52,364 nucleotides of DNA from Nemertoderma westbladi. Taxonomy: Eukaryota; Animalia; Xenacoelomorpha. Where the stretch lies: contig JAUCBJ010000142.1 in the NCBI GenBank assembly GCA_032718475.1, positions 1 to 52,364 of the forward strand, read 5' to 3'. How positions within the stretch are numbered: the stretch's first letter is position 1; every line of letters begins with the position of its first letter. Under the pieces are notes generated by a model that did no database searches, had not been told where the DNA came from, and was given only the letters and a program-made list of their open reading frames with translations. The translations under genes were made by a program, and so were the position numbers. Below, piece by piece: positions 1,613 through 35,726 of the stretch.

Positions 1613-1651
1613 AATGGAATTATATAGGCTGAATTTAATGGGCTGACTAGA

Positions 1652-4581: not shown

Positions 4582-5811
4582 TGTTCGCGCTTTTAGACCT
4601 TTAGCAGTTTAACCTGCCAAATTTGGATGTCTTCTAGATAATAAATCGACTTTAGCCTATGACGAGTATTTGATACACTACATTAGCCGAAGCCAGTCTA
4701 TGCGCGACCATTCACCCGCTGGATATACCCGGGAGACTGGATTCGGAAGCCTAATCTTATTGCGGTGTAGGCCTACTGTATTATTCGACTGATCGTAATA
4801 TATAATCTCTGACAAATATTATTCACTTTCGGGAAATATTAACAGTTCCTTTAGGACGTGGCGCTCTAAATATGTAAACAGAGTTATGACTTAAACTAGA
4901 CACAACGGGATGGCTATAGATTCACGTATATGGCGCATTCTTTAGGAGATGCTTTGTTATCAGTCACAATCATACACAATACTGCACAATGCTGCACACC
5001 GATCTGCCGACCTTCACTAATTTTAGTCACATATAAAGAGAACAACAACCAATACATGTAGTGCCTATGAAATATCATTAGATTCACTTCAAAACCACTT
5101 TAATGTAAGTCGCAATCGTTATATGTAACCGGTCTCTCTTACCTTCAGTATATCAAGAAGATTGAGGGTTTTGTAATTATTTATCGATATTCCAAATATA
5201 ATAATATTCCATCAACTGATATAATGAATAACCGACAGTAAATAGCAGTAAAAATGCGGTGTTTGTAGTTGACAATATGATTAGGTGAGTGAGATAACAG
5301 ATATACGTTTCTATGATTAAGCCTACTAATGTTGGGCTAAAGCTTTAAAATACAGTAATTCCAAAGCCGGTCTTCTAGGCTCGGAAAAAACCAACACAAC
5401 TGATCCCTCTGGGCTGTTGTAGGTATCTTTCAACACAAAGAGAAACAGCTCTCATTGGCCGAGTTCCAGATTCTGTAGGTTCCACGAATGTCTAAATGCC
5501 GAACTATTCGGGTTTTTGCAGCCCATATTCAACACAAGGCGAAATCGCTCTGATTGGTGGATCATTGTTCTGATTGGTTGATCGAACAGAACAAAGAGAC
5601 TATAGGCGTACAGCAAATCGGTTGGTAGATTGCGTCATTTGAGTTAGGTAGTTTAGAGTATTTGAGCGCATTGTGGGAAAACTGGCTTTTTATGTCCGCT
5701 AAAGCACACATGCAGACACAGCGGATAAATCGCTAGTTATGTCCTCTAAAAACACCTTACACAGTACATTGCGGAGAAAAGGGCCAGTTATATCCCGCAA
5801 AAGCTTTTACA
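4582..5811 (-). repeat. 3' LTR (1230 bp)
   Basis: Direct repeat of 21161-22380. By eye, about 3 substitutions and one 10-bp indel (CATACACAAT). Confidence 0.97.
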
Positions 5812-5819
5812 CCGCTCCC
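5812..5819 (-). promoter_or_regulatory. Short polypurine tract GGGAGCGG
   Basis: G-rich tract directly abutting the TG of the 3' LTR on the element strand. Confidence 0.7.
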
Positions 5820-7249: not shown

Positions 7250-7675
7250 ATCTGCTATATGAGTTTATCAATATTATAATGAGTTTATATTTAGGCTAGC
7301 GGGCGTCGCTGCCTACCCCTCTCGGCCCCCGGACAGCGCAAGATCCTCAGCGCTGGTGTACTTTCGCCGATGTGCCTATCGCCAACGTCGTAGCTGCACA
7401 ACGACCACAACAACCAGCGCGAGTCACTCCACCGTCCGTCCCAAAGGCTTAGATTTACTTCAGGTTCTTACTGGAGAGTTAGGGCTACTTTCACAATTGC
7501 GACTCGCTACTGTAAACACACTTTAGTAGTAACATTCACCTATAAACGTACAAATTCCACATAACTGTCACAAATCGCACACATTCGGGCCATTTGTCCG
7601 TTAGTCAGTGCCTTCCAGAATGCCACGTTATTATTGGGTATCCTGGGATACTAGCAGTGTGCTATTTATTCCTTA

Positions 7676-10600
7676 TAGTCTACCTGCCAACTCCCGAAAA
7701 TTAAGTTTAGATGGCATTTTTTGTTAATGGTTGGCATCCACATGATTTTTGTACTTCAAGACATGGCGAATCCAGCTAGGCCGGATGCCACCTCTGCATT
7801 TTTGATTTAATGCCTTTTTTTGGGCTTCAAAGTTTTTTGCTCAAAAATGTTTTTTTCAAGTTTAGGATACAAGTTCATGGTGAATGCTAGTGAATCTCGT
7901 TTCATTACCAGTGTATAAATCTAAAGTTAATAAAAATGCATCAATCTTGTCCTGAAACTGTTATAAACACTTTGGTAAAGAAGAAAATTTCCGAAATTTC
8001 CGAAATTCCCTTGCAGTCCGCCAACCCGGCCCTAGTAACCGCCTTAGCAACAGATTTATGAAATTTAAATTGTCAATTTCTTTGTCTCACCTTTCCTTTT
8101 CCTGAGAAAATCAACAAACAGTTTTAAAAATCAAAAAACCCATCACACAACTTAATAACATCTTGGGAACACATCAAGGGCAATATAAAATCAAATAGCG
8201 TCTAATGTCGCAGACACAGGCCCATTATTTAGACCAGAGTAATTTACACAAGTATCAAAATATTAAGTTTAAGTGGAGAATTCGTGTACCTTTACTCAAC
8301 TATTTGCTTCCATATTTGTAATTATTTGAAAATATCACTACAGCTAAGAAGCATGGTGATACTTCCCGTCATATTGTACACATTCGGGTGACATTTACAG
8401 TCCACGTTACCATAGCAACAGACCAAATAAGACAATTTAACAAGAATTTAATTTACAGTATAACTATAATGCAGTATTCCCTAGGCCTACCTTACCAGAG
8501 TTTTGAGAGATTAAATGTAACACACGTCGCATAGCTAAAACCTTCGACTGTTAGTCAACATCATATCGTGACTTGGGGGGGTATTGTTTAATACAAATAT
8601 GAATTTTAAAGATCTCAGGCGTTTATCGAGACATATAGTTAATAATTAACTCACTCTAAATTCTGCTAAGATATTAGTTTTGGAACAGTCGGGTGCATCA
8701 CACTATGCACCGTCGAGACAGGGGAGGGGGGGGGGGGGGGGGCAATCCCATTTCGGCGAATTAATATTTTGTATCAATGTTAAATTATCAATTTAAGGAA
8801 AGGAGCAGTTTACAGTGGCACGTTATTCGGCACAAAACAATAAACGAATATCAACAGAACAGATAGAAGTTTAATTTTTGAGAGTAATCAGGTGTTATTT
8901 GCGTCGATTTTCACCCTGGAGAGGGATCAATTTTGATTGCGTCGAAACTATCACTTTCATTTGCCTATTATTATTATGAATTGATGGAAATGGATGGTGA
9001 CGAACATATTGCCACTCTTAAAGGTAAACTTCCCGAATGTGATTTGTGAAGAGACTTGCATAGTATGTGGAACAAGAAGAAGTGTGCAGAAAGATGAAGT
9101 GGAAAATTTCTACCACAATCTACATGCATCTACTGATGGAGTGGATCAGCATGCATTCTTAATTTGCCTGGGTGACTTTAATGCAAGTCTACATCACTCA
9201 TCTACATCTCATACTGGACCAAGTGGTCACACGTCCCAGATATACCATATTCTGTTTCGTGGGAAATACAGGAGCTCTATTCTGTACAAGACTGAAGTAT
9301 ATTTGCACTTCGACCCTTATCCAGCTATTACCTAGTATTGTGGCCTAGGTAAGACTTAGTCTCCACGCAGAATGATTCCCGCCGACTAGGGCACACGAAG
9401 ACAGACAATGCTAAAGGAGCTTATCAATAAGTAGGGCCGAGGTTGATGCCATTAACGCTGATGATAGAAGGCAATCAGCTCAGGCATAGCAATCAGTAAA
9501 CCTGCTCACTGGGAGGAAAAGCCAACCAACCACCAAGGTTAATGCTGAATTGAATGAACTCCTCAATAATGGTTGAAAGGCCTACTTGAGAAGCAGCTTC
9601 CAAACATAACAGGGTATTGCCTGATAACTTTGAGGTACATCGTGTATCTGATTCTGTGCTCACAGATATCCACATCTCATTTGCTGAAATTAAGATTGCA
9701 GTAAGGGGCTTGAAGACCAATCGTGCCATTGGAGTAGATGGCGTGTCCCTGAGGTCTTTAAAATTGCTGTGTGCTTAGAGCTCATTCACCCCATTATTCT
9801 GAGTATGTATAGGACAAAGATAGTCCCTCAAGAAATGAAAATATATAAGTTGGTCCATGCACCAAAAAAGGGCAACCTAACAACCTAGAAAGCTTTTCGT
9901 GGAAACTCGTTAATCTAGATTGCTGCAAAGCAATACAACAGAATTCTATTAAATCGCATCAGGAATCCTGTGAGAACCAAAATGGGTTCCATAAAGGTCG
10001 TGGGACATGAAGTCTATTCTGGCACTTAGAAGGATAATCAAAGAGTTATCAACAAAGAAAGACATACATCTGGCTATTATCTTTGTTGACTTCTTTAAGG
10101 CCTTCGACTCAGTCTCCCGACCACGGATGTTTAGCATACTTGTAGCACATTGGTTTCCTGAGCAAATTATTGCAGCTTTCCGATCACTGTTTGATGGTTC
10201 CACCACATTTGCGTCTACTGCTGATGGTGACACAGATCCATTCGAACTCTTATGCGGAATCCGTCAGGGTTACACACTTGCACCATTCTAATTCTTAATT
10301 GTGGTTGATTGTGTTCTACGCATGTCCTTAGATCATAAAAATTAAAATTATTAAAATGGGATGATGATACCCCCTACTGGCACAATAAGTGGAGGAAATC
10401 CAGCAAAGTACCTAACTGATATAGACTTTACTGATGATATAGGGATACTGTCAGAATCACTAGAGGTAGCCCAAAGACTTCTCTGCTCATTGGACGAGGT
10501 TGCTTCTAGTGTTTGTCTTTTTGTAAATTCCAAGAAGACAAAAATTAAGACAGTGAAACTTGACAGCCCTCAAGAAATGTCTGATCGTAAGGGAATAAGC

Positions 10601-12749
10601 TCCAGGAATGGCTTGCTTGAGCACGTGGATGACTTCTGCTACTTGGGATCATGGATCAGAAACTCAGGTGAGGACCTTCGGATATGTAGGGGGGAGGCAT
10701 GGGCTGCATTGAATAGACTATCCAGGATTTGTAAGTCCCTCATAATAAAACGGTACCTCAAGGTTCGATTATTTCTGGCAGCAGTAGTTCCATGGGAGTT
10801 CACGCTGGGCTCTAACTGCAGAGGATACCAAATCTCTGGATGGCACATTCACAAGAATGCTGCGCCGGGTTCATTGTGTTATATACAACGAACACATCTC
10901 CAACCAGACTCTATACAACATTGGAGCTGTTTCATGAGTCTCCTCTAGCTTGCCACTTGAACGGAACCGCCTCAGCCTTGCAGGACATTCATTGCTTTCA
11001 CTGTGAGGAACAGCCAGTGCATTATCTTGTACTTTGGATGCCTCATGAAGTGAATAAGCATGGTGGACAACCCATGAGTTTCTTGAGACGCATCTTAAAG
11101 GACACTGGCCTTGAAGATGCGGATGATATAGCAATTGTCATGGGTGCCAGAGAGTTGTGGCAACGCAATTTTGTCGACAAGCCTGCACAGCATTCTAAAT
11201 ATATATGTAATATATATAATGCAGCTGCAATGTAGCATGCCAATAGTAATAGTAGTAAAAGTAGTAGTAGTGCTGACACATTTAATTTTAACTTGCCGTC
11301 AACTGAAGCAATTCTTAATGGCTCATCTTTCTTTGCTCCATATACTATGCATGTCTCTTCACAAACCACATTCGGGCAAGTTTTCCTTTTAATAGTAGGA
11401 ATAAGTTCGTCACCATCCATTTCCATCAAGTCATAATAATAATAATAATAGGCAGATGCAAGTGATAGTTTCGACGCAATCAAAATTGATCCCTCTCCAG
11501 GGTAAAAATCGACGCAAATAACACCTGATTACTCTCAAAAATTAAACTTCAATCTGTTCTATTGAGATTCGTTTATTGTTTTGGTTGGAATAACGTGCCA
11601 TTTTAAACTGGTCCTTTCCCTAAATTGATAATTTAACATTGAGAAAAAATAATTGAAATAAAAACAAAATAAAAACCGAAATGGGATTTGTGCCCCCTCC
11701 CCCGCTCAACCCCTGTCTCGACGGTGCATAGTGTTATGTACCTGCCTGTTGCAAAACTAATATCTTAGCAGAATTTAGAGTGAGTTAACTATTAACTGTA
11801 GGTCTCGATAAACGCCTGAGATCTTTAAAATTCATATTTGTATTAAACAATATCCCCCCAAGTCACGATATGATGTTGACTAACAGTCGAAGGTTATAGC
11901 TATGCGACGTGTGTGACATTTAATCACTCAAACTCTGGTAAGGTAGGCCTAGGGAATACTGCATTATAGTTATACTGTAAATTAAATTCTTGTTAAATTG
12001 TCTTATTTGGTCTGTTGCTATGGTAACGGGGTCTGTAAATGTCACCTAAATGGGCACAATATGACGGGAAGTATCACCATGCTACTGAGCTGTAGTGATA
12101 ATTTAAAAAAATTACAAATATGGAAGCAAATAGTTGAGTCTATGTACACGAATTCTCCACTTAAACTCAATATTTTGATACTTGTGAAAATTACTATGGT
12201 CCAAAAAATGGGCCTGTGTCTGTGACATTGGACGCTATTTGATTTTATATTGCCCTTGATGTGTTCCCAAGATGTCATATAAGTTGTGTGATGGGTTTTT
12301 TGATTTTAAAACTGTTTGTTGATTTTCTCAGGAAAAGGAAAGGTGAGACAAAGAAATTGACAATTTAAATTTCATAAATCTGTTGCTAAGGCGGTTACTA
12401 GGGCCGGGTTGGCGGACTGCAAGGGAATTTCGGAAATTTTCTTCTTTACCAAAGTGTTTATAACAGTTTCAGGACAACATTGATGCATTTTGATTAACTT
12501 TCAATTTATACACTGGTTATGAGACGAGATTCACTAGCATTCACCATGAACTTGTATCCTAAAATTGAAAAAAATCATTTTTGAGCAAAAAACTTTGAAG
12601 CCCAAAAAAAGGCATTAAATTAAAAATGCAGAGGTGGCATCCGGCCTAGCTGGATTCGCCATGTCTTGAAGTACAAAAATCAGGTGGATGCCAACCATTA
12701 ACAAAAAATGCCATCTAAACTTAATTTTCGGGAGTTGGCAGGTAGACTA
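7676..12749. mobile_element. Foldback-type non-autonomous DNA transposon with ~1.4-kb TIRs (Academ-like termini), nested in the LTR element
   Basis: 7676-~9076 is the reverse complement of ~11333-12749. Termini are TAGTCTACCTGCC..GGCAGGTAGACTA, with a 3-bp TSD TTA (7673-7675 / 12750-12752). No transposase. Superfamily is inferred from the termini and TSD. Confidence 0.88.
9085..11271 (+). pseudogene. Decayed RTE-like LINE (endonuclease remnant, RT, 3' end) filling the foldback loop
   Basis: GDFNA endonuclease motif, FVDFFKAFDSV, QGYTLAPF, TDIDFTDD and YLGSWI, many stops and frameshifts, (TAG)n-like tail. Homologous to 26268-27398. Confidence 0.9.
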
Positions 12750-13145
12750 TTATGCTATTCAATGGGCAAGCTTTATTGTTCTTTTAACTCACTTCTAATT
12801 CTAGCGTGGTTGTTGCCATGGTGACATTATGGAAAGCTAGCGGTAGAATTAGGGTAATTCTCATGCATACAGATCTGGGATGCTATTTAATAGAAATTCT
12901 TTAAAATGTCAATATCCTCTCTTTATACATGATTTTATGAATTTTATCGGCTATTGACTATATATTGGAGATTCTCGCACACGAATACACTTAATAGGGT
13001 GAATCTCCGCTCCCATGATCTATTAATTAAGGGAATTTTGGGAATGTTATAAATTGTATAAAAATGACAATTTATCAAATTCATTAAAAGATGAATTTAA
13101 ATTTATTCCCGTAAATTTTATTATTTAATATTAAATGGACACAAT

Positions 13146-13978: not shown

Positions 13979-15556
13979 CTAGATGTTTGTTAGATTAGGG
14001 AGGTGGTCGTGGGAAGAGTATCTTGCCTTCCATAGTTTCCGGACAGTTCTCGGTCTCGTTCCAGTAAACATAAACGACCAACTGGGCGATTGAGCTGCTG
14101 TGTCTCGAAGACAATTCCAGGTTTCCTCTTCGTCCTTCAAATACACGACGGCCTTACAAAGCCAATTCCAGGATCTATAGTGGTCCATCGCTCCCGGCAG
14201 GAGAGGTGAGAGTCCCGGCGAGACGTCTGGTGTTCCAGGTCTCCAGTCTCTCTCTCTGATCTCCACAACAGATCGGTTCGCGGTGGGGGAGTTTAGATCC
14301 ACAGCGTCGTCCCTGGCAATGTGTAGTACAGACAGATCTATCACGGGTTTAAATAACCTTGATTTACTCGTCCGGGTTTTAGGTTTGACTTTCGCCGCTC
14401 CCTTGGCTTGTCTAATCTCAGCCGTGGTAATATGGGAAGGCCATTCATCTTCTTTACTTAGGAAGTCGGGTCCACCTAACCAGTCTGGAGTATCTGTCAG
14501 TTCTTGAGGAGTTGCTCCTCTGGAAGCGATGTCGACTAGATTAATCGTCTCGGGGCAATGTCTCCATTGATCTACATTGGAGTTAATATTGTCATTATCT
14601 GAGGAGTATGGTGTTCCCTCAGTTGGGTCGTCTACCTCACTGCTCTCCGCTTCCCATTCGCTTACTTGGTATACCCGTTCTTTTGGTAACCTTTCTATGA
14701 GAGTTCTACGGGAAGGGCCAGTAAGGTACCAACCTACTCTAGTTCTTCCCGCATAGGCTTGTAGCGGTTGCGGTTGAGCAGGCCATTTCTCCAATGTCTC
14801 AAGCGCCTCATGCACATTTTGGCCGATGAGTATTTGCACTCCAGGGTAATCTATGTTGAATCTAGGTATATTAAGCTGCTGGGTGGAATCGTCCTCATCC
14901 CAGTTATAAGGTTCTACTTGGCTGGTAGCGAAGTTCTTTATCGCCACCATTTTTACTGACCTTATACTGTGTTCTCCTAGTTCATCCTGGGGGGTGGACA
15001 ACGCACCTACATAATAATCCGCTATTACTGTAGATTTCCAAACCTGCATAATTCCTGACATGTTTAACTTAGTTCGGAACTTGGGTTTTCCAGCAAAGAT
15101 GTCTTCGGCTAGTTCTTTGTCGATGAATGTTCCTGTGCTACCGGAGTCAAGGAGGGTGTTCACTGTATAACTCCTTTTAAGTCCGTGGACCCTTAACTGT
15201 ACTACTGGAAATTCTCGGATTCCTACATTGGAAGTTGGTGCTTTCCAAGATGGTTGTCGGTCAGAAGTAGTTAGGGGGAGCTCGATGTCGGTGGCCTTTT
15301 CATACGTAAGTGCTCGATACACTGCGGTATTTATCAGGTAACAGGATTCGTTTTCGTCGGAGAATTCGTCCGTATAGAATCCTTCCATCTCAGAACTTTG
15401 GTCAGTGTCGTTCACATCACTGAATTGGACATGTAGTTCGGACTCACTTACCTGATTCGGGCTGTTTCGATCGAATTCAGTGTGCAACAAGATATGATGT
15501 TTTACGCCGCACTTTGCACACCTTGCGTCGGAGTAACAGGTTCGCCGTTGGTGTCC
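13979..15556 (-). CDS. Truncated BEL/Pao pol: end of the zinc knuckles, aspartic protease, fused in frame to the RNase H C-terminal segment; no RT or integrase
   Basis: Same frame as gag beyond the TGA at 15557-15559. Contains GHQRRTC..CAKCGVKHHILLH, LLDSGSTGTFI, ILIG and RTRVGW, then QWRHCPETINLVDIASRG..WLGGPDFL..WP. No YVDD motif and no integrase motifs. Confidence 0.85.
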   Translation of the reverse strand, partial: GHQRRTCYSDARCAKCGVKHHILLHTEFDRNSPNQVSESELHVQFSDVNDTDQSSEMEGFYTDEFSDENESCYLINTAVYRALTYEKATDIELPLTTSDRQPSWKAPTSNVGIREFPVVQLRVHGLKRSYTVNTLLDSGSTGTFIDKELAEDIFAGKPKFRTKLNMSGIMQVWKSTVIADYYVGALSTPQDELGEHSIRSVKMVAIKNFATSQVEPYNWDEDDSTQQLNIPRFNIDYPGVQILIGQNVHEALETLEKWPAQPQPLQAYAGRTRVGWYLTGPSRRTLIERLPKERVYQVSEWEAESSEVDDPTEGTPYSSDNDNINSNVDQWRHCPETINLVDIASRGATPQELTDTPDWLGGPDFLSKEDEWPSHITTAEIRQAKGAAKVKPKTRTSKSRLFKPVIDLSVLHIARDDAVDLNSPTANRSVVEIRERDWRPGTPDVSPGLSPLLPGAMDHYRSWNWLCKAVVYLKDEEETWNCLRDTAAQSPSWSFMFTGTRPRTVRKLWKARYSSHDHLPNLTNI

Positions 15557-18364
15557 TCATCTGAGGCAATTATAACACAACCGCTTATCCCACATGACTT
15601 CACGTCTGTCCTTTAGTGATTTCCTCAGGAATTCATCACACGCACTTAAACGGTGGGGCCCGTCACACAGCACACATTTTGGTTTGATGTTACTTACCTT
15701 ACTTTGGGTAACGTTGTGCACACTCGTTCTTTCCTCGGGCTTTATTACATGAATTCTCTTAGGAGACGTAGGAGGAGTTTTTCTTACCTGTTCTCTCCTG
15801 TCATTGGTTCGCGACTTGAATTTACTTACGTCCTTAGGCGCTTTGTTGTCATAGTAAGATCTTTCAGTGTCTTTCCCGCTGTCTTCCTCTTGAGAAGCCT
15901 GGCTTTCGCCGCCGTCTGTATAACACACTGGTATTACCTTTCTCCTAGAAACGGGTTTCTCACTTACCTTATTTTCCGGTGTCTTCTCTCTGGACTGCTT
16001 TAGAAGCTGTAATTTTACCTCTCCATCTAAGAATGACATGAGATCAGCCATGGTAGGATCTCTTTGTTGTTGTTCCGTCATATATAACACTTTCTTGTCC
16101 CAGCGTGTACCTACTCCACCCTTGGGCAAAGTAGATGCTAAGGCTCCTACAACCATAGAATTCTGGTATTCATGAGACTTACCTAGCCAATCTAATTGTC
16201 TACAGATCTCCTGAATCTCATCGGAAAACTCTATAATCCCGCTGCTAAGAAACTTTCGGGGCGCCATTAATTTCGCATATAAATACCTAGCTATGTTAGT
16301 CCTATTACCATACCTGATGTTTAGTGTATCCCAAACTTGTCTTAATCCATCTGGATGTCCAATAAACTTTAACGCCATTAACTTGGGAGATCCTTCCAAG
16401 CACTCAATGAGGAATCTAAGTTTCTCTCCGTTAGATAGCACAGAGTTCTGTATGTTATCTTTGTAATATTCATTAAAAGGTAACCATTTCATCTCATCTC
16501 CATTGAACTTGACTATCTCTCCCACCTTTACCGCTTGACGGGCTTCGGTTCTAGCCATTTGACGCGTAAAACTTTCTTGGGCCATCGTGTTATTTAATAT
16601 CGAGTTATCGGTATATAAATTTCTCGGATTATTATCAAGTCTATATGGGATATCATTGTCAACAGGTTTATAATTACCCTTAATAGGGTTTACTATAGGA
16701 GTTTCCACTTCGCTAGCAGTATAGATGCGTGTAGGCTCCACACCTTGCGCATGAAATACTTCAGACCTAACAGGTTGACACATTGTTACAGGGGGTGGTG
16801 GTATACCCTTTTGTGTATTTACTAATTTATCGCGTTCTAACGCGATACTTTGCTGCACTTCTTGCAACTCTAACCTACTCTCTCTAATTGTTCCCTTTAA
16901 CTGCTGCACAGTCCCCTCCATCTCCTGGACTTGCTGAGAGGAGCGGGAACGGTGTTCCCTCAGCTGCCCGAGCAGGAGACCCATCTCCCGTCGTCCCTCA
17001 TCTACCCACTCGACCGCCGAAGCGGGAGGCACCAACGTTGTAGCGGGCGGACGAGGGACAATGGGCGACAAATCATTAATATTTCGCTCGGAGTCCAGGA
17101 CATGAATATTTTCAAGGGTGGTTCCGTGGGGCACAGGTAGCTTAGTGCTGTGCAGAGGGAATTTAGAGGTAGGTTCAGGGAGTACAGGTGTCTCTATCAC
17201 CGAAGGGGTGGCTTCGAGAACAGGCCTAATTATTTCAGGCTCATCTACTATAGTAGGGAGTCTTTCTATTTTAATTATTTGGTCTGTGGGTTCTGTACTA
17301 CCTAAGTTTGTGTTAGTTAGTTGCCTTCTAACAGCTGGGGGCAAATCAGGCAATTTCTGACGGTGGGACATTCTTCTACGTCTGCCTAGACGAGATCTAT
17401 TTCCTCCGCCTTCAGGATCGGTGGTATCGCCTTCCTCAGATGATGTATATCCCTGTCTTTTGGGAGTTGATCGACTCATCATCTGCATTTGACTAGCTGT
17501 TAACTGTTTATTTATGCAGTCTTGATTCTCCTGAATGTTTTCCAATTCTAGTTGGGTGGTTTCTTCAGACGCTCTCCGTTCTGCTTCTGCCACTGCCTCT
17601 GCCGCTGCCACTGCCGCCTTTCTTTCCGCTTCGGCCGCTGCCGTTACTGCCTTTCTTTCCGCTTCTGCCTCTGCCGCTGCCGCTGCCGCTGCCGCTTTTC
17701 TTTCCGCTCCTGCCGCTGCCACTGCTGCTGCCACTGCCGCTGTCTTTCTGTCTTCTATACGTTTTTTCTTTACTTGTTCTTCTTGGACTCTAGCGATGCG
17801 GAGGCGTTCATCAAATTTAGCTTGGTTCGCAGCTCTCATATCCGCATCGATTGCGTCCAACACAAGCTTGGCTCCTTCACTATTAGGGCTAAGTCCTTCC
17901 AGCCTTCTCCTCAACTCTTCATCACCTATAAAGCGTTGATAGTCTGACAGATAGATGTCAATAGCATCCCTCTTATGCGGTTTCTCTGCTGTCGCTTCAC
18001 TTTCCACTTGGGAAAAGGTGGCGTCTGTTGATTCTCCAAGGGTTGAGCGCTCATCTAACTGAGATTTCCACGGGGCAGTTCTTTGAACTTGGAGACTCAC
18101 CCGCTGTAACCAAGTCTTTACGGCAACTTGCAACGACGTGTCTTGTCTTCTTTTCGAAGCCTCCTCAAAGGCCGATAGGATTAGTCTGATTCTTAGAATT
18201 CTTTCTCGAACTTGATAAAGCAGCTCTCTCTGCTCTTGAGGTCCTTGTGGTTGTCTAAACAATTGTTCCTCTAATCGCTCCATGGAGCTGAAGAATCCCT
18301 GTACGTATCCGGCTGCTGACCTCTTCCACACAGCTGGATCGCTGGTTTCCTTTGTCACTCCCAT
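15557..18364 (-). CDS. gag: BEL/Pao Gag (935 aa), stopped inside the second zinc knuckle
   Basis: KFNGDEMKWLPF..EKLRFLIECLEG..L..RYG (DUF1759-like), CVLCDGPHRLSAC and LCYNCLR knuckles, N-terminal coiled-coil and Ala-rich repeats. Confidence 0.9.
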   Translation of the reverse strand: MGVTKETSDPAVWKRSAAGYVQGFFSSMERLEEQLFRQPQGPQEQRELLYQVRERILRIRLILSAFEEASKRRQDTSLQVAVKTWLQRVSLQVQRTAPWKSQLDERSTLGESTDATFSQVESEATAEKPHKRDAIDIYLSDYQRFIGDEELRRRLEGLSPNSEGAKLVLDAIDADMRAANQAKFDERLRIARVQEEQVKKKRIEDRKTAAVAAAVAAAGAERKAAAAAAAAEAEAERKAVTAAAEAERKAAVAAAEAVAEAERRASEETTQLELENIQENQDCINKQLTASQMQMMSRSTPKRQGYTSSEEGDTTDPEGGGNRSRLGRRRRMSHRQKLPDLPPAVRRQLTNTNLGSTEPTDQIIKIERLPTIVDEPEIIRPVLEATPSVIETPVLPEPTSKFPLHSTKLPVPHGTTLENIHVLDSERNINDLSPIVPRPPATTLVPPASAVEWVDEGRREMGLLLGQLREHRSRSSQQVQEMEGTVQQLKGTIRESRLELQEVQQSIALERDKLVNTQKGIPPPPVTMCQPVRSEVFHAQGVEPTRIYTASEVETPIVNPIKGNYKPVDNDIPYRLDNNPRNLYTDNSILNNTMAQESFTRQMARTEARQAVKVGEIVKFNGDEMKWLPFNEYYKDNIQNSVLSNGEKLRFLIECLEGSPKLMALKFIGHPDGLRQVWDTLNIRYGNRTNIARYLYAKLMAPRKFLSSGIIEFSDEIQEICRQLDWLGKSHEYQNSMVVGALASTLPKGGVGTRWDKKVLYMTEQQQRDPTMADLMSFLDGEVKLQLLKQSREKTPENKVSEKPVSRRKVIPVCYTDGGESQASQEEDSGKDTERSYYDNKAPKDVSKFKSRTNDRREQVRKTPPTSPKRIHVIKPEERTSVHNVTQSKVSNIKPKCVLCDGPHRLSACDEFLRKSLKDRREVMWDKRLCYNCLR

Positions 18365-18918
18365 CCGTGTATGTCTTCCCAGGCAGCTTCCGATAAGTCA
18401 AACGGAAGTCTGGGTCCGGGGAAGTTCCATTGCGACTCGACAATAGACTTCAGTTCTTCCCTTGTATATCCCGCATAACTATCCTTGGTCGATCGCTTAC
18501 TTCTCACCCAATCAATCTGGTGTTCCTCCACCGCAATCAATACCCTAGTGAGTACGGCTGCAGGAAGGATGAGAAGGGGATCCGAATAAACCGCATCTGT
18601 CATCTTTGCTCCGTGCTCGGGTGTCAGCTCTACAGTATCCTCACTACTGGAGCTGCCGGGCCGCTGAGAAATAAGTTCTCGGCTCGCGGGTTGTTGCTGT
18701 TCCGCTGCTTCTTGGTCCCGCTTGACCTGAGCTCGAGTTCCTATGATAGACCTACAATGTTGGACTAGCCTAGGGTCTGATATTACTACTGGAGGGATGA
18801 TCTTTCTTACAGTAGGAGGTGAATTGAACTTCGGTCTCACACGTTCCACACTCCTGTCCGGGTCACAGATGGTTGTATCTAGGAGACTGTCTGACAGGTT
18901 TTGCTTTGTGTCAGACAT
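18355..18918 (-). CDS. 187-aa ORF upstream of gag (separate ORF or frameshifted Gag N-terminus)
   Basis: ATG-initiated and on the same strand. Its TGA overlaps the gag ATG region (ATGGGAGTGA). Confidence 0.55.
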   Translation of the reverse strand: MSDTKQNLSDSLLDTTICDPDRSVERVRPKFNSPPTVRKIIPPVVISDPRLVQHCRSIIGTRAQVKRDQEAAEQQQPASRELISQRPGSSSSEDTVELTPEHGAKMTDAVYSDPLLILPAAVLTRVLIAVEEHQIDWVRSKRSTKDSYAGYTREELKSIVESQWNFPGPRLPFDLSEAAWEDIHGWE

Positions 18919-19029
18919 GTTTGTTTATACAGTTGAATGCCTACTGCTCTATTACAGTTTAAGCATGTCTAGTAATTCAGTATCACTGTTAGCCTAGTAA
19001 TTAATTACCGATACTGCTACTCAGTGTAG

Positions 19030-19300: not shown

Positions 19301-20249
19301 ACGTCAATTATTTTAGAATAATTGAATTTCTGAATTTTAGGGGTTACTTGGTTACTTTAACTTACTTTATTACCGTTATTTAAGCAGTAGTCCAACTGAT
19401 ATTGAGACCTAATTGTTGTATGGCAGGCCTACTATTTTATAAATCGGTTTGAGTTGATTTATAATATATATACCGGTTTTAATGGGTTTTGTCAATATTT
19501 GAAATAAATGTTATTATTTCTGGGAAAGAGTCACTACACAGAAGCTGTGCGCTCTCAGTGAAGTGCTACTTGTTGGACACTAAAACAAATAATTCTAATT
19601 TACCTAAGTTACATAATACTACAAATTACATACAATTCGGGGTGAGATTACAATCTCTAAATAAACACGAAAAATTACACGTACTAATTTTTAGGGTAAT
19701 TTTACAAGAAGTCTACAAACCAGCCTAACAAAGGGTTAGATTGTCTGGTTATTACAACGGACAGGGTACTACGGTATTTGAAAATAATAAGTAGTAGTAA
19801 ATATATTGCGTTGTCCAGATAGGAAAAATACCACCGTCTGACGACTTATAGCCATATCGCTATAAGTACTACGTTATGTATCACGGAGTGTTCCTACCTA
19901 GAAGTTAATTACCGCGGTCTACCAGAACCAACGTGCCTATTAACCACTTTACAACACAAATATACTGCCTACACACTAATTACCTTCGGAAAGCACTGTA
20001 CACTAAACCCTAAATTAGGTACAAGTACTTATACAACAAATAATCAGTAGTTAAAATACTTGAACAGCTAAAAGAACCACGGTATCTGCTGGAGTGACCG
20101 GGGCACAAAATCACCAGTCTTTACCTACGCCAAGCAGCCCTGATGTAGTACCGGGGTTGGTTTAACTATAACGGTATATATAACAAGCACAATTACTGTA
20201 GGAATAAACTTGGGGATATGAATGTTGCGAATAATCGCATAAACTCTGA

Positions 20250-20827
20250 ATAATAAATATTACACTACGCGTACAGACTACTCAAACAAAATGCAGACCA
20301 AATACTGACAGACTACTATCAAGCCTAAACAAACTACGGTATATGCAGACTCCGAAATGGTTAGTTAGTATGCGTTCTAACCGAGTAGTACGACTTATTC
20401 TTTCGAGGGGGTTTACCTCACAGCACTGGAAGCCCCTACGTTCCCAACTGGCACTTTATCGGACATACACTCTACATACACCGCAATCTCTTCAAACCTA
20501 ACAACAGCTAGGCAACAATCCAGCCTACAAATTATCTAAATAAGAAATATTACGCTACCCGTACAAACTACACAAACAAAATACAGACCAAACGCTGGCA
20601 GACTACTATCAAGCCTAAACAAACTACAGTATATGCAGACTCCGAAATGATTAGTTAGTATGCGTTCTAACCGAGTAGTACGACTTATTCTTTCGAGGGG
20701 GTTTACCTCACAGCACTGGAAGCCCCTACTTTCCTAACTAGTAATTTATCGGACATACACTCCACACACACCGCAATCTCTTCAGACTTAACAACAGTCA
20801 GACAACAGTCCAGCCTACAAATTATCT
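20250..20827. repeat. 290-bp tandem duplication in the element 5' UTR
   Basis: 20341 onward matches 20631 onward (ATATGCAGACTCCGAAATG.TTAGTTAG..) with scattered substitutions. Confidence 0.9.
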
Positions 20828-21148
20828 GTACAATCTGAGCAGGCTTACATGCCTTCTGCTCAATATTGGCCTACAAATAAATAAAACCTGACAGAAATAA
20901 GTAAAATCTCAATAAAAAACCAGGGCGGGCCATCCCTGATTTAATATTAAGGCCTACCGGTATACAATATCAAAATCGAATAATACTGCTGTACCTGTAC
21001 TGCTGTAAGTACCGGTCCGGGTGGTTAGGTAGTCAAGCCTACTGGGTACCGGTTGGCCGGTACTTCAGCTTTATTGCCTACGTTGCAATAAAGAAGCAAT
21101 ATCTGTTATTGTTCTTACCAGAACAATAGACAACTATATTTCAGAAGT

Positions 21149-21160
21149 TATATCTGTTAT
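21149..21160 (-). promoter_or_regulatory. PBS-position 12-mer ATAACAGATATA, complementary to an LTR-internal sequence (candidate self-priming site)
   Basis: Abuts the CA end of the 5' LTR and lacks the TGG start of tRNA PBSs. It is the exact reverse complement of 21863-21874 and 5294-5305. Confidence 0.6.
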
Positions 21161-22380
21161 TGTTCGCGCTTTTAGACCTTTAGCAGTTTAACCTGCCAAA
21201 TTTGGATGTCTTCTAGATAATAAATCGACTTTAGCCTATGACGAGTATTTGATACACTACATTAGCCGAAGCCAGTCTATGCGCGACCATTCACCCGCTG
21301 GATATACCCGGGAGACTGGATTCGGAAGCCTAATCTTATTGCGGTGTAGGCCTACTGTATTATTCGACTGATCGTAATATATAATCTCTGACAAATATTA
21401 TTCACTTTCGGGAAATATTAACAGTTCCTTTAGGACGTGGCGCTCTAAATATGTAAACAGAGTTATGACTTAAACTAGACACAACGGGATGGCTATAGAT
21501 TCACGTATATGGCGCATTCTTTAGGAGATGCTTTGTTATCAGTCACAATACTGCACAATGCTGCACACCGATCTGCCGACCTTCACTAATTTTAGTCACA
21601 TATAAAGAGAACAACAACCAATACATGTAGTGCCTATGAAATAGCATTAGATTCACTTCAAAACCACTTTAATGTAAGTCGCAATCGTTATATGTAACCG
21701 GTCTCTCTTACCTTCAGTATATCAAGAAGATTGAGGGTTTTGTAATTATTTATCGATATTCCAAATATAATAATATTCCATCAACTGATATAATGAATAA
21801 CCGACAGTAAATAGCAGTAAAAATGCGGTGTTTGTAGTTGACAATATGATTAGGTGAGTGAGATAACAGATATACGTTTCTATGATTAAGCCTACTAATG
21901 TTGGGCTAAAGCTTTAAAATATAGTAATTCCAAAGCCGGTCTTCTAGGCTCGGAAAAAACCAACACAACTGATCCCTCTGGGCTGTTGTAGGTATCTTTC
22001 AACACAAAGAGAAACAGCTCTCATTGGCCGAGTTCCAGATTCTGTAGGTTCCACGAATGTCTAAATGCCGAACTATTCGGGTTTTTGCAGCCCATATTCA
22101 ACACAAGGCGAAATCGCTCTGATTGGTGGATCATTGTTCTGATTGGTTGATCGAACAGAACAAAGAGCCTATAGGCGTACAGCAAATCGGTTGGTAGATT
22201 GCGTCATTTGAGTTAGGTAGTTTAGAGTATTTGAGCGCATTGTGGGAAAACTGGCTTTTTATGTCCGCTAAAGCACACATGCAGACACAGCGGATAAATC
22301 GCTAGTTATGTCCTCTAAAAACACCTTACACAGTACATTGCGGAGAAAAGGGCCAGTTATATCCCGCAAAAGCTTTTACA
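21161..22380 (-). repeat. 5' LTR (1220 bp)
   Basis: Element strand reads TGTAAAAGC..GCGCGAACA. Near-identical to 4582-5811. Confidence 0.97.
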
Positions 22381-23165
22381 TCCCTGTAACCTAAAATCAA
22401 CATCAACCCCCTTAGTTGTATTATCTTTATGCTAAGTGTTATTTACTAATAATATATTTATCAATTATTATTAATTCCACAAAGCCAATTAAGGTTATAA
22501 GGGGAGAGGTAGGGTAAAAATTGAACTTATGGCTCACCAACACCAAAATTAAGAATAATGCACAATTACAGCACAGAACGATGAATAATGCACAGAACCT
22601 AAATTAAGTCAATAACGGGGAAAAATGTATATGCAAAAGTTATAAAGCGATCTCCTATTATTTATTATTAGTAGTACCAGTTGACCAACAAGACCAGTTT
22701 ATTTATATAGCAGCACGATCATTAGAGACACTTAGGGAAGTGCTGCGGCATCGAATAGCATTTAACAACAAATGATGGCAATAATATGGGGCAAAATATT
22801 CCTATCTTTTACTTTTATATAGGGGGAAACAAGAAGGAAGTGGTACTCATCTTCTAAAGCAACTAGATTGTATAAGGTGGACTTACGTTGTTCACGAGGA
22901 ATGTTATACCAACGACCATATTGAATACCCAGACTATGGGACGAGTATCTGATCCTTGAAATTAAAGTCGAAGAGAATTAAGGTACCCTTCCGCACGGTA
23001 GCAATATTTAACATACGGTGAGTAACCCTTTAGGTGAGTCTCTTATTAATTGCCCTCACCATTGTTGAATATGAGCAACCCAATTAACTCGGCCGGGCCC
23101 CGGCTGGGCCCTCATCTATAGAATTCAACTGGAGCATGTAGGCCTGTTTGAGTAGACGACTAGAA

Positions 23166-26242: not shown

Positions 26243-28150
26243 TTTACATCATTGTGTGCAAAGTAGCTTCAACGTATGTCAAACGTATGTTCAGCATACT
26301 TTCATTATATGGGATTCCTGATGAAATTATTGCAGCAATCAGATCAGTATACGATGGTTCGACAACATGTGTGTCTACTGTTGACGGTGACACAGAACCA
26401 TTTGAAGTGTTATGGGGCGTCCTCCAGGGAGACACACTTGCACCATTATTGTTCATAATTGTTGTTGACTATGTTCTAGGCATGTCCTTAGATCATCATA
26501 ATGATGATGGGGTGATGATAACTCCACCTACTGGCTCCAGAAGTCGAGGAAATCCTGCCAAGTACCTAACTGATCTAGACTTTGCTGATGACTTAGGAGT
26601 ACTCTCAGAATCACTAGAGGGAGCCCAACGGCTCCTCAGCTCATTAGAACATGCTGCTTCTAGTGTTGGTCTTTTTATTAACTCCAGAAAGACCAAAATT
26701 TTGACAGTTAACTTTGAAAGTCCTCAGCAAGTCTCTCATCGGATGAGCATAAGCTCCAAAGATGGTATGCTTGAGCATGTGGATGACTTCTGTTACCTGG
26801 GATCATGGATCCGGAAGTCAGGTGAGGACCTTCGAATACGTAAGGGAAAGGCATGGGCAGCCTTGAATAGGCTTTCCAGGATTTGGAAGTCACCGAGAAT
26901 TAATCGGAAACTTAAGGTCCGGTTATTTAGAGCAGCAGTAGTTCCAGTACTCCTCTATGGGAGTCCATGCTGGGCTCTAACTGCTGAGGACACCAAATCT
27001 CTGGATGGCACATTCACAAGAATGCTACGCCGGGTTCATTGTGTCAAGTTCAATGCACACATCTCCAACCAGACACTATATAACATTGGAGGTGTCTCAT
27101 TGGTTCCCCCAAGCTTGACTCTAGAACAAAATCGCCTCCGCTTTGCAGGACATTGCTTTCGCCGTGAGGACCAGCCAGTGCATAATCTTGTACTTTGGCA
27201 GCGTCATGGAGTGAATAAGCATGGTGGACAGCCCATGACTTTCTTGAGACGCATCTTAAAGGATACTGGCCTTGAAGATGCGGATGATCTAGCAAATGTC
27301 ATGGGTGATAGGGAGTTGTGGCGGTGCAATTTTGTCGATAAGCCTGCACAGCATTCTTAAAAATGCAGCTGCAATGCAGCATGCCGATCCTAGTAGTAGT
27401 GCAAAGTAGCACTTTGCAGCGTTATGACCCGAGTTTATTTATGTACCGAGCGAGCGCAGCGAGGGAGGTTTACATAAATAAACAAGGATCTTTAAAGCTG
27501 AAATGTAACCTTTGCAAACAATGATGTATGTAATTTTGTTACATTATGTCAACTAATCAGCGTTTGGTATGTGAAGAAAGGTTTTTATGGATGCTCATTT
27601 GAACATTTTAATCATGTACTATTTCGATTTATACTATGTTATGATACTGTGATTTGTACTATTACTATGTACTATTTATTAACAGGTACACAGTATTAAT
27701 TATACATTTAAATAAATCTAATTAAAGTTTGTTGGAAGTTTTCACCTGCATGGGTTGATAAATCATTAATCCATCTTGACTTTGGTCGACTGAAGCAAAC
27801 TTAGTCACCGTCTTTATCCATTCAGTTTTACTGAACACTGTCGTCACTTTCTTAGGTTATTTTAGTGTCTTCTATTAGACGTTTCGCCATAATGGATTAC
27901 AGTACACGTTAAACAATTATTTACATACAGTAGCTAGTCCCGTCACTGCAAACTGGATAATAAAGCAGCCACTCATTAACATGAATGGAAATAATACATT
28001 CTGGAATACGGTAATTGAAGTTGTGTCCATGTCATTGATTACTTTGCAGCGTTCCGTCCTATAGGCCGCAACGCTGCAAAGTAGTACTTTGCAGCTTTCC
28101 GCGTAATTCACTAGAAAGCTGTTAAGTTGACATAATGTTACAAAATATAT
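26243..28150. mobile_element. Palindrome-rich non-coding element (Crypton-like non-autonomous, inferred), interrupted by an RTE LINE
   Basis: Removing the LINE restores a ~150-bp hairpin centred on GAGCGAGCGCAGCGAG. 27533-27554 is inverted at 28125-28146. The palindrome GCTGCAAAGTA-G-TACTTTGCAGC at 28073-28095 repeats 27401-27420. Confidence 0.5.
26268..27398 (+). mobile_element. 5'-truncated RTE-like LINE with an open RT-to-C-terminus frame and a 12-bp TSD
   Basis: ORF open to 27360 (QGDTLAP, FADD, YLGSWI, RLRFAGHC), (TAG)3 tail, TSD GTGCAAAGTAGC at 26256-26267 and 27399-27410. Confidence 0.95.
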
Positions 28151-30253: not shown

Positions 30254-30769
30254 CTGGACAAAATAGAAAAACGAGGTTGCAGCTGTTACGCATTCAATTC
30301 ATATGAATGTATGAATGCATGAATGTGCAACATGGACTGAGATACGAGACAAAAAGCTTTTGGCAGTGTAACAAAACATGGAAACCTACGTATATCAAAC
30401 AACACACTCAGACAAGCCAGCCAATATACTCAGACAATATAAATATTCGCATAGGGGGATGGAGGGGTGGGGGTTAGATGAATATTGATAGGTGTGAATT
30501 TGTTTTCTGTTTTCTGTTTGCTGTTGCATTTATATTTTTTGGAATTTTTTTAAAGTTATTTCACAAATCCTAATAGAAAATTTCCCCGGGCCCCCATTTT
30601 TCGCCGGCCCCTAGGCTCAAGCCTTTTAGGCCTATTGGGTAATACGGCACTGGACGGGTGGATGCCTAACCTTTCTTGTAGACAATTACTCAATGATCCC
30701 CGAACTGCAAGAATGGACTCAAGGATACTTCTTACTTTCTTTCAACCGATTTGTCTCACAGGAGATTTT

Positions 30770-32765
30770 ACTGTACACTGTCACACACTGTACACGTACA
30801 CTGTACACTGTTCACATACACTGTACACTGTTCACATACACTGTACACTGTACACGTACACTGTACACCGCACACATACACTGTACACTGTACACGTAAA
30901 CTGTACACTGTACACATACACTGTACACTGTACACATAGAATGTACACGTACACTGTACACTGTACACATACACTGTACATGGACACTGTACACGTACAC
31001 TGTACATTGTACATTGTACACGTACACTGTACACATACACTGTACACTGTACACGTAAACTGTACACTGTACACATACACTGTACACGTACACTGTACAC
31101 TGTACACATACACTGTACACTGTACACATACACTGTACACTGTACACATACACTGTACACGTACACTGTACACTGTACACATACACTGTACACGGACACT
31201 GTACACGTACACTGTACACATACACTGTACACGTACACTGTACACGTACACTGTACACTGCACACATACACTGTACACTGTACACGTAAACTGTACACTG
31301 TACACATACACTGTACACTGTACACTGTACACGTACATTGTACACTGTACACATACACTGTACACGTACACTGTACACTGTACACATACACTGTACACGG
31401 ACACTGTACACATACACTGTACACGGACACTGTACACGTACACTGTACACTGTACACTGTACACATACACTGTACACATACACTGTACACTGTACACGTA
31501 CACTGTACACATACACTGTACAGTGTACACATACACTGTACACTGTACACTGTACACATACAATGTACACGTACACTGTACACGTTACGGTACACGTACA
31601 CTGTACACGTACACTGTACACGTACACTGTACACGTACACTGTACACGTACACTGTACACGTACACTGTACACGTACACTGTACACGTACACTGTACACG
31701 TACACTGCACACGTACACTGTACACGTACACTGTACACGTACACTGTACACATACACTGTACACGTACACTGTACACGTACACTGTACACGTACACTGTA
31801 CACGTACACGGTACACGTACACTGTACACGTACACTGTACACGTACACTGTACACGTACGCTGTACACATACACTGTACACTGTACACATACACTTACAC
31901 GTACACTGTACACGTACATTGTACACCTACACTGTACACGTACACTGTACACGTACACTGTACACTGTATACATACACTGTACACTGTACACGTACACTG
32001 TACACGTACACTGTACACTTACACTGTACACATACACTGTACACGTACACTATACACGTACGCTGTACACGTACACTGTACACGTACACTGTACACGTAC
32101 ACTGTACACGTACACTGTACACATACACTGTACACTGTACACGTACACTGTACACGTACACTGCACACGTACACTGCACACGTATACTGTACACGTACAC
32201 TGTACACGTACACTGTACACGTACACTGTACACATACACTGTACACGTACACTGTACACGTACACTGTACACGTACACTGTACACGTACACTGTACACGT
32301 ACACTGTACACGTACACTGTACACGTACACTGTACACGTACACTGTACACATACACTGTACACGTACACTGTACACGTACACTGTATACGTTACTGTACA
32401 CGTACACTGTACACGTACACTGTACACGTACACTGTACACGTACACTGTACACGTACACTGTACACGTACACTGTACACGTACGCTGTACACGTACACTG
32501 TACATATACACTGTACACGTACACTGTATACGTACACTGTACACGTACACTGTACACGTACACTGTACACGTACACTGTGCACTGTATACATACTCTGTA
32601 TACTGTACACGTACACTGTACATGTACACTGTACACGTACACTGTACACGTACACTGTACACGTACACTGTACACGTACACTGTACACGTACACTGTACA
32701 CGTACATTGAACACGTAAACTGTACACGTACATTGTACACGTACACTGTACACGTACACTGTACA
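30770..32765. repeat. Compound satellite of ACACTGT (7 bp) and ACACGT/ACACAT (6 bp) subunits, consensus 13-mer TACACTGTACACG
   Basis: ~2 kb, irregular on the left and a regular 13-bp period on the right. Confidence 0.98.
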
Positions 32766-33479
32766 ACAGTCTACAATTAATCATCATGTGACAGTTACAT
32801 GCCAGTTAAATATTCGTTGATAACTTATGATCTCGGGTAATCATAAATAATTGGTCGGTGCGTGATGTGGATCAGAGAAGTAATGCACCAGCAATCTTCT
32901 GCACAAAGGTATCTGTAGCAGTATCATTACAGTTGACTTACGGTTCTGTTACTATATTAAATTGAAATCTGCTACTGTCATTTGATGTCACGCCCTATTG
33001 GAAGTAACACCTGATAATTGGATTGATAATTAGTCCAATTTTAAGGAATATTCACAACGCTTCACTGACCGTTTTCAGTCTTGTGGATTTTATAATAGGA
33101 GTCAAGGTGTTCAGAGGTGAGAGGAATGTTTAGTTAGTAACAGGGGTGTAAAATATGTTCCTTTCCAACCAATATTTAATATATTTTTTACTGATTAATT
33201 GAGATTTTAATTGTATACCATTATGCTTCTCTTCACCCGCCTTCCTTACTTATATTATAGAATTAGATAACTGATACTTACTCTTTAAAAAAATAGAAAA
33301 AAATATAATAACTATTAACCAGAATATTGGTAACAAACGTAGAAAATAAAAAAAAAAATGTTTAAGTTTAACAATAATCAACATGCAATATATCCCGTAT
33401 ACCATTTTCATCCTATTCAGGCAGTTGATCCTCCATCCACATCCTCTTATACAGTAAAACTAAAAATTTTAGTTGGTAA

Positions 33480-33803
33480 CGGGGGTAAACGTTACGCCTA
33501 CACCTGCGCCTACACGCGTCTACACATACCAGCTCTGCCGGTATGTGTAGACGGGGTGTTACCTACGGGGGTAAACGTTACGCCTACACCTGCGCCTACA
33601 CGCGTCTACACATACCAGCTCTACCGGTAAGCCTATACATCTGACTATTCCATAAGTTGTTGACTCTCAATTCATTCCCTACATATTCCAATCTCTCGTT
33701 TATTGTCTTGGTTCCTTTCAACCCGCTCTGTAACCTGCTCCTTCACTAACCTGCCTACAAGTAGTTGTAGGTGTAGGCGTTGCGTTTACCCCCGTAGGTA
33801 ACA
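33480..33803. mobile_element. Small MITE-like inverted-repeat element with a duplicated left end
   Basis: TGTTACCTACGGGGGTAAACGTTACGCCTACACCT (33557-) is inverted at ~33769-33803. 33480-33542 is duplicated at ~33566-33628. Hairpin CGTCTACACATACC..GGTATGTGTAGACG. Confidence 0.55.
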
Positions 33804-33925
33804 GAGTAAACAGAAGGTACCTTGAAGCGACGGTAATACCATCTCGAGAAGTATCGTGATCTTGTGGAAATTTTGTGAGCTGTTGTGTGACTTGTTTGTA
33901 TCTCTGGTATCACTGATTAACAATG

Positions 33926-35726
33926 TTGTAGGCCCTATGGTTAAACTGTGTATGATTTGATGTTAACCTTGTAGGCCCTATGGTTAAACTGTGTATGATT
34001 TGATGTTAACCTTGTAGGCCCTATGGTTAAACTGTGTATGATTTGATGTTAACCTTGTAGGCCCTATGGTTAAACTGTGTATGATTTGATGTTAACCTTG
34101 TAGGCCCTATGGTTAAACTGTGTATGATTTGATGTTAACCTTGTAGGCCCTATGGTTAAACTGTGTATGATTTGATGTTAACCTTGTAGGCCCTATGGTT
34201 AAACTGTGTATGATTTGATGTTAACCTTGTAGGCCCTATGGTTAAACTGTGTATGATTTGATGTTAACCTTGTAGGCCCTATGGTTAAACTGTGTATGAT
34301 TTGATGTTAACCTTGTAGGCCCTATGGTTAAACTGTGTATGATTTGATGTTAACCTTGTATGCCCTATGGTTAAACTGTGTATGATTTGATGTTAACCTT
34401 GTAGGCCCTATGGTTAAACTGTGTATGATTTGATGTTAACCTTGTATGCCCTATGGTTAAACTGTGTATGATTTGATGTTAACCTTGTAGGCCCTATGGT
34501 TAAACTGTGTATGATTTGATGTTAACCTTGTAGGCCCTATGGTTAAACTGTGTATGATTTGATGTTAACCTTGTAGGCCCTATGGTTAAACTGTGTATGA
34601 TTTGATGTTAACCTTGTAGGCCCTATGGTTAAACTGTGTATGATTTGATGTTAACCTTGTAGGCCCTATGGTTAAACTGTGTATGATTTGATGTTAACCT
34701 TGTAGGCCCTATGGTTAAACTGTGTATGATTTGATGTTAACCTTGTATGCCCTATGGTTAAACTGTGTATGATTTGATGTTAACCTTGTAGGCCCTATGG
34801 TTAAACTGTGTATGATTTGATGTTAACCTTGTATGCCCTATGGTTAAACTGTGTATGATTTGATGTTAACCTTGTAGGCCCTATGGTTAAACTGTGTATG
34901 ATTTGATGTTAACCTTGTAGGCCCTATGGTTAAACTGTGTATGATTTGATGTTAACCTTGTAGGCCCTATGGTTAAACTGTGTATGATTTGATGTTAACC
35001 TTGTAGGCCCTATGGTTAAACTGTGTATGATTTGATGTTAACCTTGTAGGCCCTATGGTTAAACTGTGTATGATTTGATGTTAACCTTGTATGCCCTATG
35101 GTTAAACTGTGTATGATTTGATGTTAACCTTGTAGGCCCTATGGTTAAACTGTGTATGATTTGATGTTAACCTTGTATGCCCTATGGTTAAACTGTGTAT
35201 GATTTGATGTTAACCTTGTAGGCCCTATGGTTAAACTGTGTATGATTTGATGTTAACCTTGTAGGCCCTATGGTTAAACTGTGTATGATTTGATGTTAAC
35301 CTTGTAGGCCCTATGGTTAAACTGTGTATGATTTGATGTTAACCTTGTAGGCCCTATGGTTAAACTGTGTATGATTTGATGTTAACCTTGTATGCCCTAT
35401 GGTTAAACTGTATATGATTTGATGTTAACCTTGTAGGCCCTATGGTTAAACTGTGTATGATTTGATGTTAACCTTGTAGGCCCTATGGTTAAACTGTGTA
35501 TGATTTGATGTTAACCTTGTAGGCCCTATGGTTAAACTGTGTATGATTTGATGTTAACCTTGTAGGCCCTATGGTTAAACTGTGTATGATTTGATGTTAA
35601 CCTTGTAGGCCCTATGGTTAAACTGTGTATGATTTGATGTTATCCTTGTAGGCCCTATGGTTAAACTGTGTATGATTTGATGTTAACCTTGTATGCCCTA
35701 TGGTTAAACTGTGTATGATTTGATGT
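33926..35726. repeat. 43-bp minisatellite (TGTAGGCCCTATGGTTAAACTGTGTATGATTTGATGTTAACCT)n, ~42 copies
   Basis: Nearly invariant units with a recurrent TAGG>TATG variant and an internal GGTTAA..TTAACC dyad. Confidence 0.98.

Follow-up and report, generated by a model that had tools for sequence, protein, structure and literature searches.

Introduction

Which molecule primes minus-strand DNA synthesis in a retroelement that carries no transfer RNA (tRNA)-type site behind its 5′ long terminal repeat (LTR)? This question is raised by contig JAUCBJ010000142.1 of Nemertoderma westbladi (Xenacoelomorpha; NCBI GenBank assembly GCA_032718475.1), positions 1 to 52,364 of the forward strand. The whole stretch of 52,364 nucleotides (nt) was analysed and is hereafter called the window. 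Judged by its sequence, the element concerned is a young, non-autonomous BEL/Pao derivative lying on the minus strand. In this study, the 5′ LTR edge of the element was investigated in the window, in distant relatives and in other copies from public sequencing runs. Its own RNA, and not a host tRNA, likely supplies the primer for minus-strand DNA synthesis in this element. Self-priming is considered likely because the pairing on which it depends recurs with different letters in coding relatives, and because a conserved island in the LTR ends at the predicted primer.

Self-pairing at the edge of the 5′ LTR

The following features define the pairing:

21161 to 22380, minus strand: 5′ LTR, 1220 base pairs (bp), with TG...CA ends
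4582 to 5811, minus strand: 3′ LTR, 1230 bp, with TG...CA ends, 98.9% identical to the 5′ LTR
21149 to 21160, minus strand: putative primer-binding position, 12 nt complementary to LTR positions 21874-21863; its core, 21160-21150, is common to other copies
21863 to 21874, minus strand: predicted self-primer in the 5′ LTR; the 3′ LTR copy is at 5305-5294
21099 to 21115, minus strand: duplicate comprising the LTR end and the adjoining 11 nt of the primer-binding site, in part contained in a local hairpin (21128-21107)

A preliminary description of this DNA had claimed a 12-nt complementarity at the LTR edge, and 21160-21149 is indeed the exact reverse complement of both 21874-21863 and 5305-5294. 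The limits it gave were reproduced, the match beginning at offset 0 from the LTR edge and ending after 12 nt, as was the lack of a tRNA-type site, with TGG absent within 20 nt of the LTR end. The self-pairing exceeds chance. When the LTR was shuffled with its dinucleotides preserved, at least 12 nt over four offsets were reached in 23 of 20,000 shuffles, and 11 nt in 70 of 20,000; elsewhere in the window, 19 of 49,546 positions match the LTR over at least 12 nt.

The predicted pair probability of the helix in the folded leader was 0.6-1.0 for four assumed starts, spliced or unspliced (model values, not measurements). The duplicate at 21115-21099, which the preliminary description had overlooked and which is absent from some other copies, captures at most about 20% of the pairing when predicted folds start at 21873.

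Self-pairing in distant BEL/Pao relatives

A search of metagenome contigs with an alignment of 12 long homologues gave 516 confirmed matches, of which the best 80 were kept; the resulting 78 loci are a sample biased by the query. The LTR end was fixed independently by the end of a direct repeat in 12 loci; because L053 and L058 are duplicates of L045, they were set aside, and 10 anchored loci remained. None of these has a contiguous match to its own downstream LTR beyond 9 nt. Seven pair over 10-14 nt with the exon junction of a predicted intron in their own LTR (null 0-1 of 300), and eight do so, again over 10-14 nt, once an AAG acceptor is allowed (null 0-2 of 300 each). L073 shows a contiguous match of 10 nt in its 5′ LTR (4 of 1000), and L045 is the only anchored relative with a TGG tRNA-type site. 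Self-pairing was found in 9 of the 10 anchored relatives, and a tRNA site is lacking in 9. The eight junction-type loci (L010, L014, L037, L039, L054, L062, L065 and L078) are coding elements with predicted LTR introns of 77-404 nt, and most of their sites begin with GTT, 0-3 nt past the LTR end.

An unanchored scan was performed on 48 of the 78 loci, with 30 short, rearranged or truncated loci excluded, and yielded matches of at least 11 nt in 23 loci, compared with 12.2 expected. Clear false matches of 12-13 nt appeared in L005-L007 (inside gag), L045 and L064, and the scan was therefore used for leads only. These leads, whose LTR ends were not independently fixed, are contiguous in L004, L011, L019, L063 and L069 and of the junction type in L026, L031, L032 and L060. 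Between pairs of loci picked by eye, pairing is preserved by matched changes in L004/L011 (2/2), L026/L039 (1/1) and L031/L054 (3/3), and through several changes in L014/L060.

Contiguous types have open frames of 1656-2073 amino acids in 5 of 6 cases. In a quick tree of reverse transcriptase (RT) and ribonuclease H (RNase H) with 73 rows, they occupy two places, each beside junction types; L004, L011, L019 and L031 form one clade, with 98% support in the Shimodaira-Hasegawa-like approximate likelihood ratio test (SH-aLRT). This placement fits repeated intron loss without proving it. No relative was identified in viral contigs with the protein alignment, and no DNA similarity was found between the window LTR and the 78 loci.

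L004 (60-430) and L011 (150-380) are coding elements and sisters in the tree; their LTRs have diverged, and the contiguous pairing word differs between them at two matched positions. Donor words lie downstream of the primer in L004, as in the window element.

Two alternatives to self-priming are addressed by these results. A host tRNA fragment or another small RNA might prime, with the LTR match being secondary, and half-tRNA priming is known in copia lineages (PMC6317226). Against such a primer, the sites vary among relatives and follow each element's own LTR, including exon junctions; moreover, ARAGORN detected 0 tRNAs in the window and Rfam gave 0 matches in 20800-22400. We regard priming by host RNA as very unlikely. 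The least likely explanation of all is chance, or a one-off inverted duplication in the window copy. Anchored at the LTR edge, such a match has a chance of about 0.001; two runs contain other copies with the 11-nt site (see below), and 9 of 10 relatives show this feature too. These results stand against the AT-rich nature of the 12-mer, the local duplication in the window copy and the false matches of the unanchored scan.

Other copies in public sequencing runs

Seven public sequencing runs, none of them recorded as RNA, were available for the comparison, and contigs from four (X1, X2, X4 and X6, the last from another organism) were compared with the element. A narrow comparison covered 21825-21965 with 109 contigs from X1, 32 from X2, 4 from X4 and 0 from X6, and its variant tables are complete at 4%. 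A wide comparison drew on 40 of 322 variant rows, from which invariance of the post-LTR site cannot be inferred. The family is very abundant, and its summed depth, which does not equal copy number, drops about hundredfold upstream of about 21930. Exact DNA patterns of the element had no match among viral contigs (0 loci) or metagenome contigs (0 loci).

Copies that lack the duplication retain 21160-21150 in X1 (2 contigs) and X2 (1 contig), with the joint at 21095-21150, and the common core is therefore 11 nt. The 12-nt site of the preliminary description is thus correct for the window copy and one nucleotide longer than the part that copies share.

In the narrow comparison, 21874-21863 carries no variant at 4% or above in three DNA runs. 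Elsewhere in 21825-21965, there are 7 substitution rows and 9 indel rows, and 5 of these indel rows fall at 21860-21851, just past the primer. The primer adjoins a further feature:

21862 to 21911, minus strand: island of about 50 nt, the sole part of the stretch common to some diverged subfamily contigs

Such diverged contigs align only over 21911-21862 (X2 record 12, 50 of 121 nt), with unrelated letters on both sides, or only over 21910-21857 (X1 record 4, 54 of 135 nt), again with unrelated flanks. The end of the conserved island coincides with the 3′ end of the predicted primer.

Promoter, start site and predicted intron

Priming in cis requires only that transcription start at or upstream of 21873. 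The features relevant to the start of the RNA are as follows:

21913 to 21924, minus strand: TATA-like word of the preliminary description, conserved neither in the 3′ LTR nor among other copies
21967 to 21972, minus strand: initiator-like TCAGTT, an alternative start-site candidate from a motif scan
21633 to 21711, minus strand: predicted 79-nt GT-AG intron in the repeat and unique 5′ regions (R and U5), containing ATTAAA (21673), without a match between the intron's junction and the primer-binding site

The preliminary description had argued from a TATA-like promoter word and a downstream ATTAAA, and neither argument held. The TATA-like word differs in the 3′ LTR (21922), and nearly all contigs have other letters at 21920, 21915 and 21913, which account for the full depth or almost so in X1 and X4 and for 70-100% in X2; being private to the window copy, it was rejected as a promoter signal. 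ATTAAA is present at 21673 but lies within the predicted intron 21711-21633. A splice-junction primer was also considered for the window element and was rejected, the best junction match being 7 nt compared with 12 nt for the contiguous one. In other copies, a T-rich stretch precedes the island and AG (21907-21906) comes after that stretch, resembling a splice acceptor, but the sole strong donor word upstream lies 51 nt into the LTR, at 22329.

The motif scan also revealed CCAAT words at 22146, 22126 and 22027, upstream of the initiator-like word; together, these words suggest a possible transcription start near 21970. A further TCAGTT lies downstream of the 12-mer, at 21788. The single loose end in X6, where a TATA-like word lies upstream of 21902, came from a short alignment and was given no weight.

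The 12-mer might lie upstream of the start site, in the promoter or the unique 3′ (U3) region, and would then be outside the 5′ end of the RNA and unable to prime in cis. In favour of this, its first letters form a TATA-like word, the island may act as a core promoter, and the initiator-like word at 21788 is downstream of the 12-mer. Similarity among copies, however, declines upstream of about 21911-21930, the pattern that a U3 side should show, and the CCAAT words and the other initiator-like word lie upstream. A position outside the transcript would also leave the exact complement at the LTR edge unexplained, and we consider it highly improbable.

Identity and structure of the element

The remaining features of the element are listed below:

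22381 to 22385 (left copy) and 4581-4577 (right copy), minus strand: target-site duplication, 5 bp, one mismatch
5812 to 5819, minus strand: polypurine tract preceding the 3′ LTR, as in BEL/Pao elements
15557 to 18924, minus strand: Gag region in two frames, with a break near 18355-18397 and a C-terminal Cys/His knuckle
about 16507-16121, minus strand: DUF1759 in Gag (PF03564, E 2e-12)
13979 to 15556, minus strand: protease (about 15232-14714), then directly the segment that in relatives follows RNase H (about 14587-14435)
7675 to 12750, no strand assigned: nested insertion with inverted ends of about 1.4 kb and an RT fragment of a long interspersed nuclear element (LINE)

The two LTRs differ by 3 substitutions and one 10-nt indel. 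LTR length, TG...CA ends and the target-site duplication fit the description of BEL/Pao (Belpaoviridae), with LTRs of about 0.2-1.2 kb. The Gag region has 1782 homologous proteins at E of at most 0.001, with 25-39% identity among the best 150 of the 1782, and Peptidase_A17 was present in 20 of the 21 long Gag homologues scanned, which marks these as Pao polyproteins. A domain search and comparison with homologous Pao polyproteins found RT, RNase H and integrase absent from the element, which is non-autonomous because these are missing. No homologue of similar length was found for the protease open reading frame.

Several further observations concern the element and its surroundings. The inverted ends of the nested insertion at 7675-12750 are 91.7% complementary, and its LINE RT fragment is 80% like another at 26283-27409. 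Broken extra reading frames lie upstream of the 3′ LTR (5890-7264, minus strand); they contain a Cys/His-rich piece and a C-terminal run of basic residues and have no Pfam match, and one piece is without a usable match in Atlas. The 2.2-kb 5′ leader contains a tandem duplication of about 290 bp (91%) at 20245-20827. Long tandem arrays occur around the element at 1500-3000, 30500-32800, 33800-35600 and 38300-44000, with units of 26, 13, 43 and 18/20 nt. A separate RT fragment at 45796-47208 (plus strand; RVT_1, E 1e-26) is unrelated to the priming feature.

Discussion

The proposal of the preliminary description that this family self-primes is supported by the BEL/Pao proteins, the lack of a tRNA-type site and a pairing that is beyond chance and present in relatives; its promoter argument is not supported. 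In the proposed mechanism, transcription would start at or upstream of 21873, and 21874/21873-21863 would fold back onto 21160-21149 at the LTR edge. By analogy with Tf1, RNase H of a coding helper relative would cut after 21863 and release a 3′ hydroxyl, which a borrowed RT would extend across U5 and R, over 702 nt or, with the intron spliced out, 623 nt, before jumping to the 3′ R. Splicing of an LTR intron would generate the primer in 8 of 10 relatives, so that the mechanism does not have to rely on the 11 nt at the start of the RNA. The window family is of the contiguous type, and its junction was plausibly fixed by intron loss, as judged from the relatives' tree alone. More tentatively, a large branch of animal BEL/Pao elements may be tRNA-independent, the element's own RNA yielding the primer once the host has spliced out an LTR intron, and lineages like that of the window element may repeatedly have hard-wired it as a contiguous word by intron loss; this wider reading is possible, somewhat short of probable.

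Several points weigh against self-priming. The primer of the window element is 702 nt from the LTR end, compared with 87-330 nt in 11 relatives. A second, upstream helix beside the primer was not above shuffles (180 of 400 for the window element; Fisher p=0.15 over 14 relatives), and a conserved two-part helix, convincing in duplex folds, was rejected for this reason. Among the relatives, the choice of the AAG acceptor (L054) and that of the 5′ LTR of L073 were made post hoc. Gag of the window element is only 20-35% identical to that of the relatives, and the element is not placed in their tree because it lacks RT. No contig of another copy covers both the LTR word and the post-LTR site. Finally, the variant-free 12-mer is weak evidence alone, with a probability of about 0.24 by chance in a hand calculation (16 variant rows over 141 nt).

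The pairing may also be real but structural, serving leader folding, packaging, dimerisation or 5′-3′ cyclisation via the 3′ LTR copy, while another molecule provides the 3′ hydroxyl. The distance of the primer from the LTR end agrees with such a role, and the duplicate site and hairpin at 21128-21099 permit alternative folds. However, in all self-pairing cases the helix starts 0-3 nt from the LTR end, where the 3′ end of the primer must sit, and it takes up the sole place for tRNA binding. Its length of 10-14 nt is also comparable to the 11-nt Tf1 primer. A purely structural role is unlikely, though it deserves more weight than the other alternatives, and priming by the element's own RNA is preferred.

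Self-priming is known or predicted in other LTR superfamilies. In Tf1 of S. pombe, bases 1-11 of the RNA anneal to the site, and RNase H then cleaves between bases 11 and 12 to produce the primer (PMC7175516). The choice of start site decides primer inclusion in Tf2 of the same yeast (PMC5341516), and self-priming of Tj1 from S. japonicus is treated in PMC4600332. Like the window element, Tf1/Tf2, Tj1, and Tf1/sushi and Tcn1 (Ty3/gypsy) lack a tRNA site and have about 11 nt of LTR complementary to the post-LTR site. Tf1/sushi elements encode Ty3/gypsy (chromovirus) proteins, whereas those of the window element are of the BEL/Pao type. The window element also differs from Tf1 in its 1.2-kb LTR, in the distance of its primer from the LTR end and in being non-autonomous. 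Moreover, Tf1 primes with the 11 nt at the very start of its RNA, whereas the primer of the window element is only predicted from sequence and its relatives would make theirs at a splice junction. By analogy, the element probably works like Tf1 without being a member of the Tf1/sushi group.

In the TAR lineage of plant Ty1/copia (Houba, Osr-1), self-priming has likewise been predicted from sequence alone, where at least 10 nt of complementarity starts 0-5 nt past the 5′ LTR (PMC6317226); the same arrangement is found in the window element. TAR is a plant copia lineage, whereas the window element belongs to animal BEL/Pao, and no splice-junction form is mentioned for TAR in the consulted passages of that paper. 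The profile of Belpaoviridae by the International Committee on Taxonomy of Viruses (ICTV) describes host-tRNA priming from an 18-nt site for tRNA-Arg or tRNA-Gly and calls replication poorly understood (PMC8742986). The window element resembles Belpaoviridae/Semotivirus in LTR size, polypurine tract and Gag and protease type (PMC8742986), whereas the 18-nt site is lacking in it and in 9 of the 10 tested relatives.

No report of BEL/Pao self-priming was found in searches of an open-access library; an earlier mention is possible in subscription journals, Repbase reports or supplements. For Cer7 of C. elegans, a self-encoded tRNA-like primer has reportedly been proposed. In the consulted passages, PMC6317226 lists self-priming only for Tf1/sushi, Tcn1 and plant copia TAR, and PMC3601003 does not model BEL/Pao; a term look-up in PMC554778 and PMC3118150 found no mention of a primer-binding site or tRNA.

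Likely self-priming in this family contrasts with the host-tRNA priming stated for BEL/Pao in the ICTV profile (PMC8742986). If the signature is functional, a whole BEL/Pao branch would escape dependence on tRNA and silencing via tRNA fragments, and such elements will be misjudged by annotation tools that depend on a tRNA site. The question of how LTR priming originated, from self or from tRNA, would gain a third lineage. If the branch-wide reading is also true, self-priming would occur in all three LTR superfamilies and would here be tied to the spliceosome.
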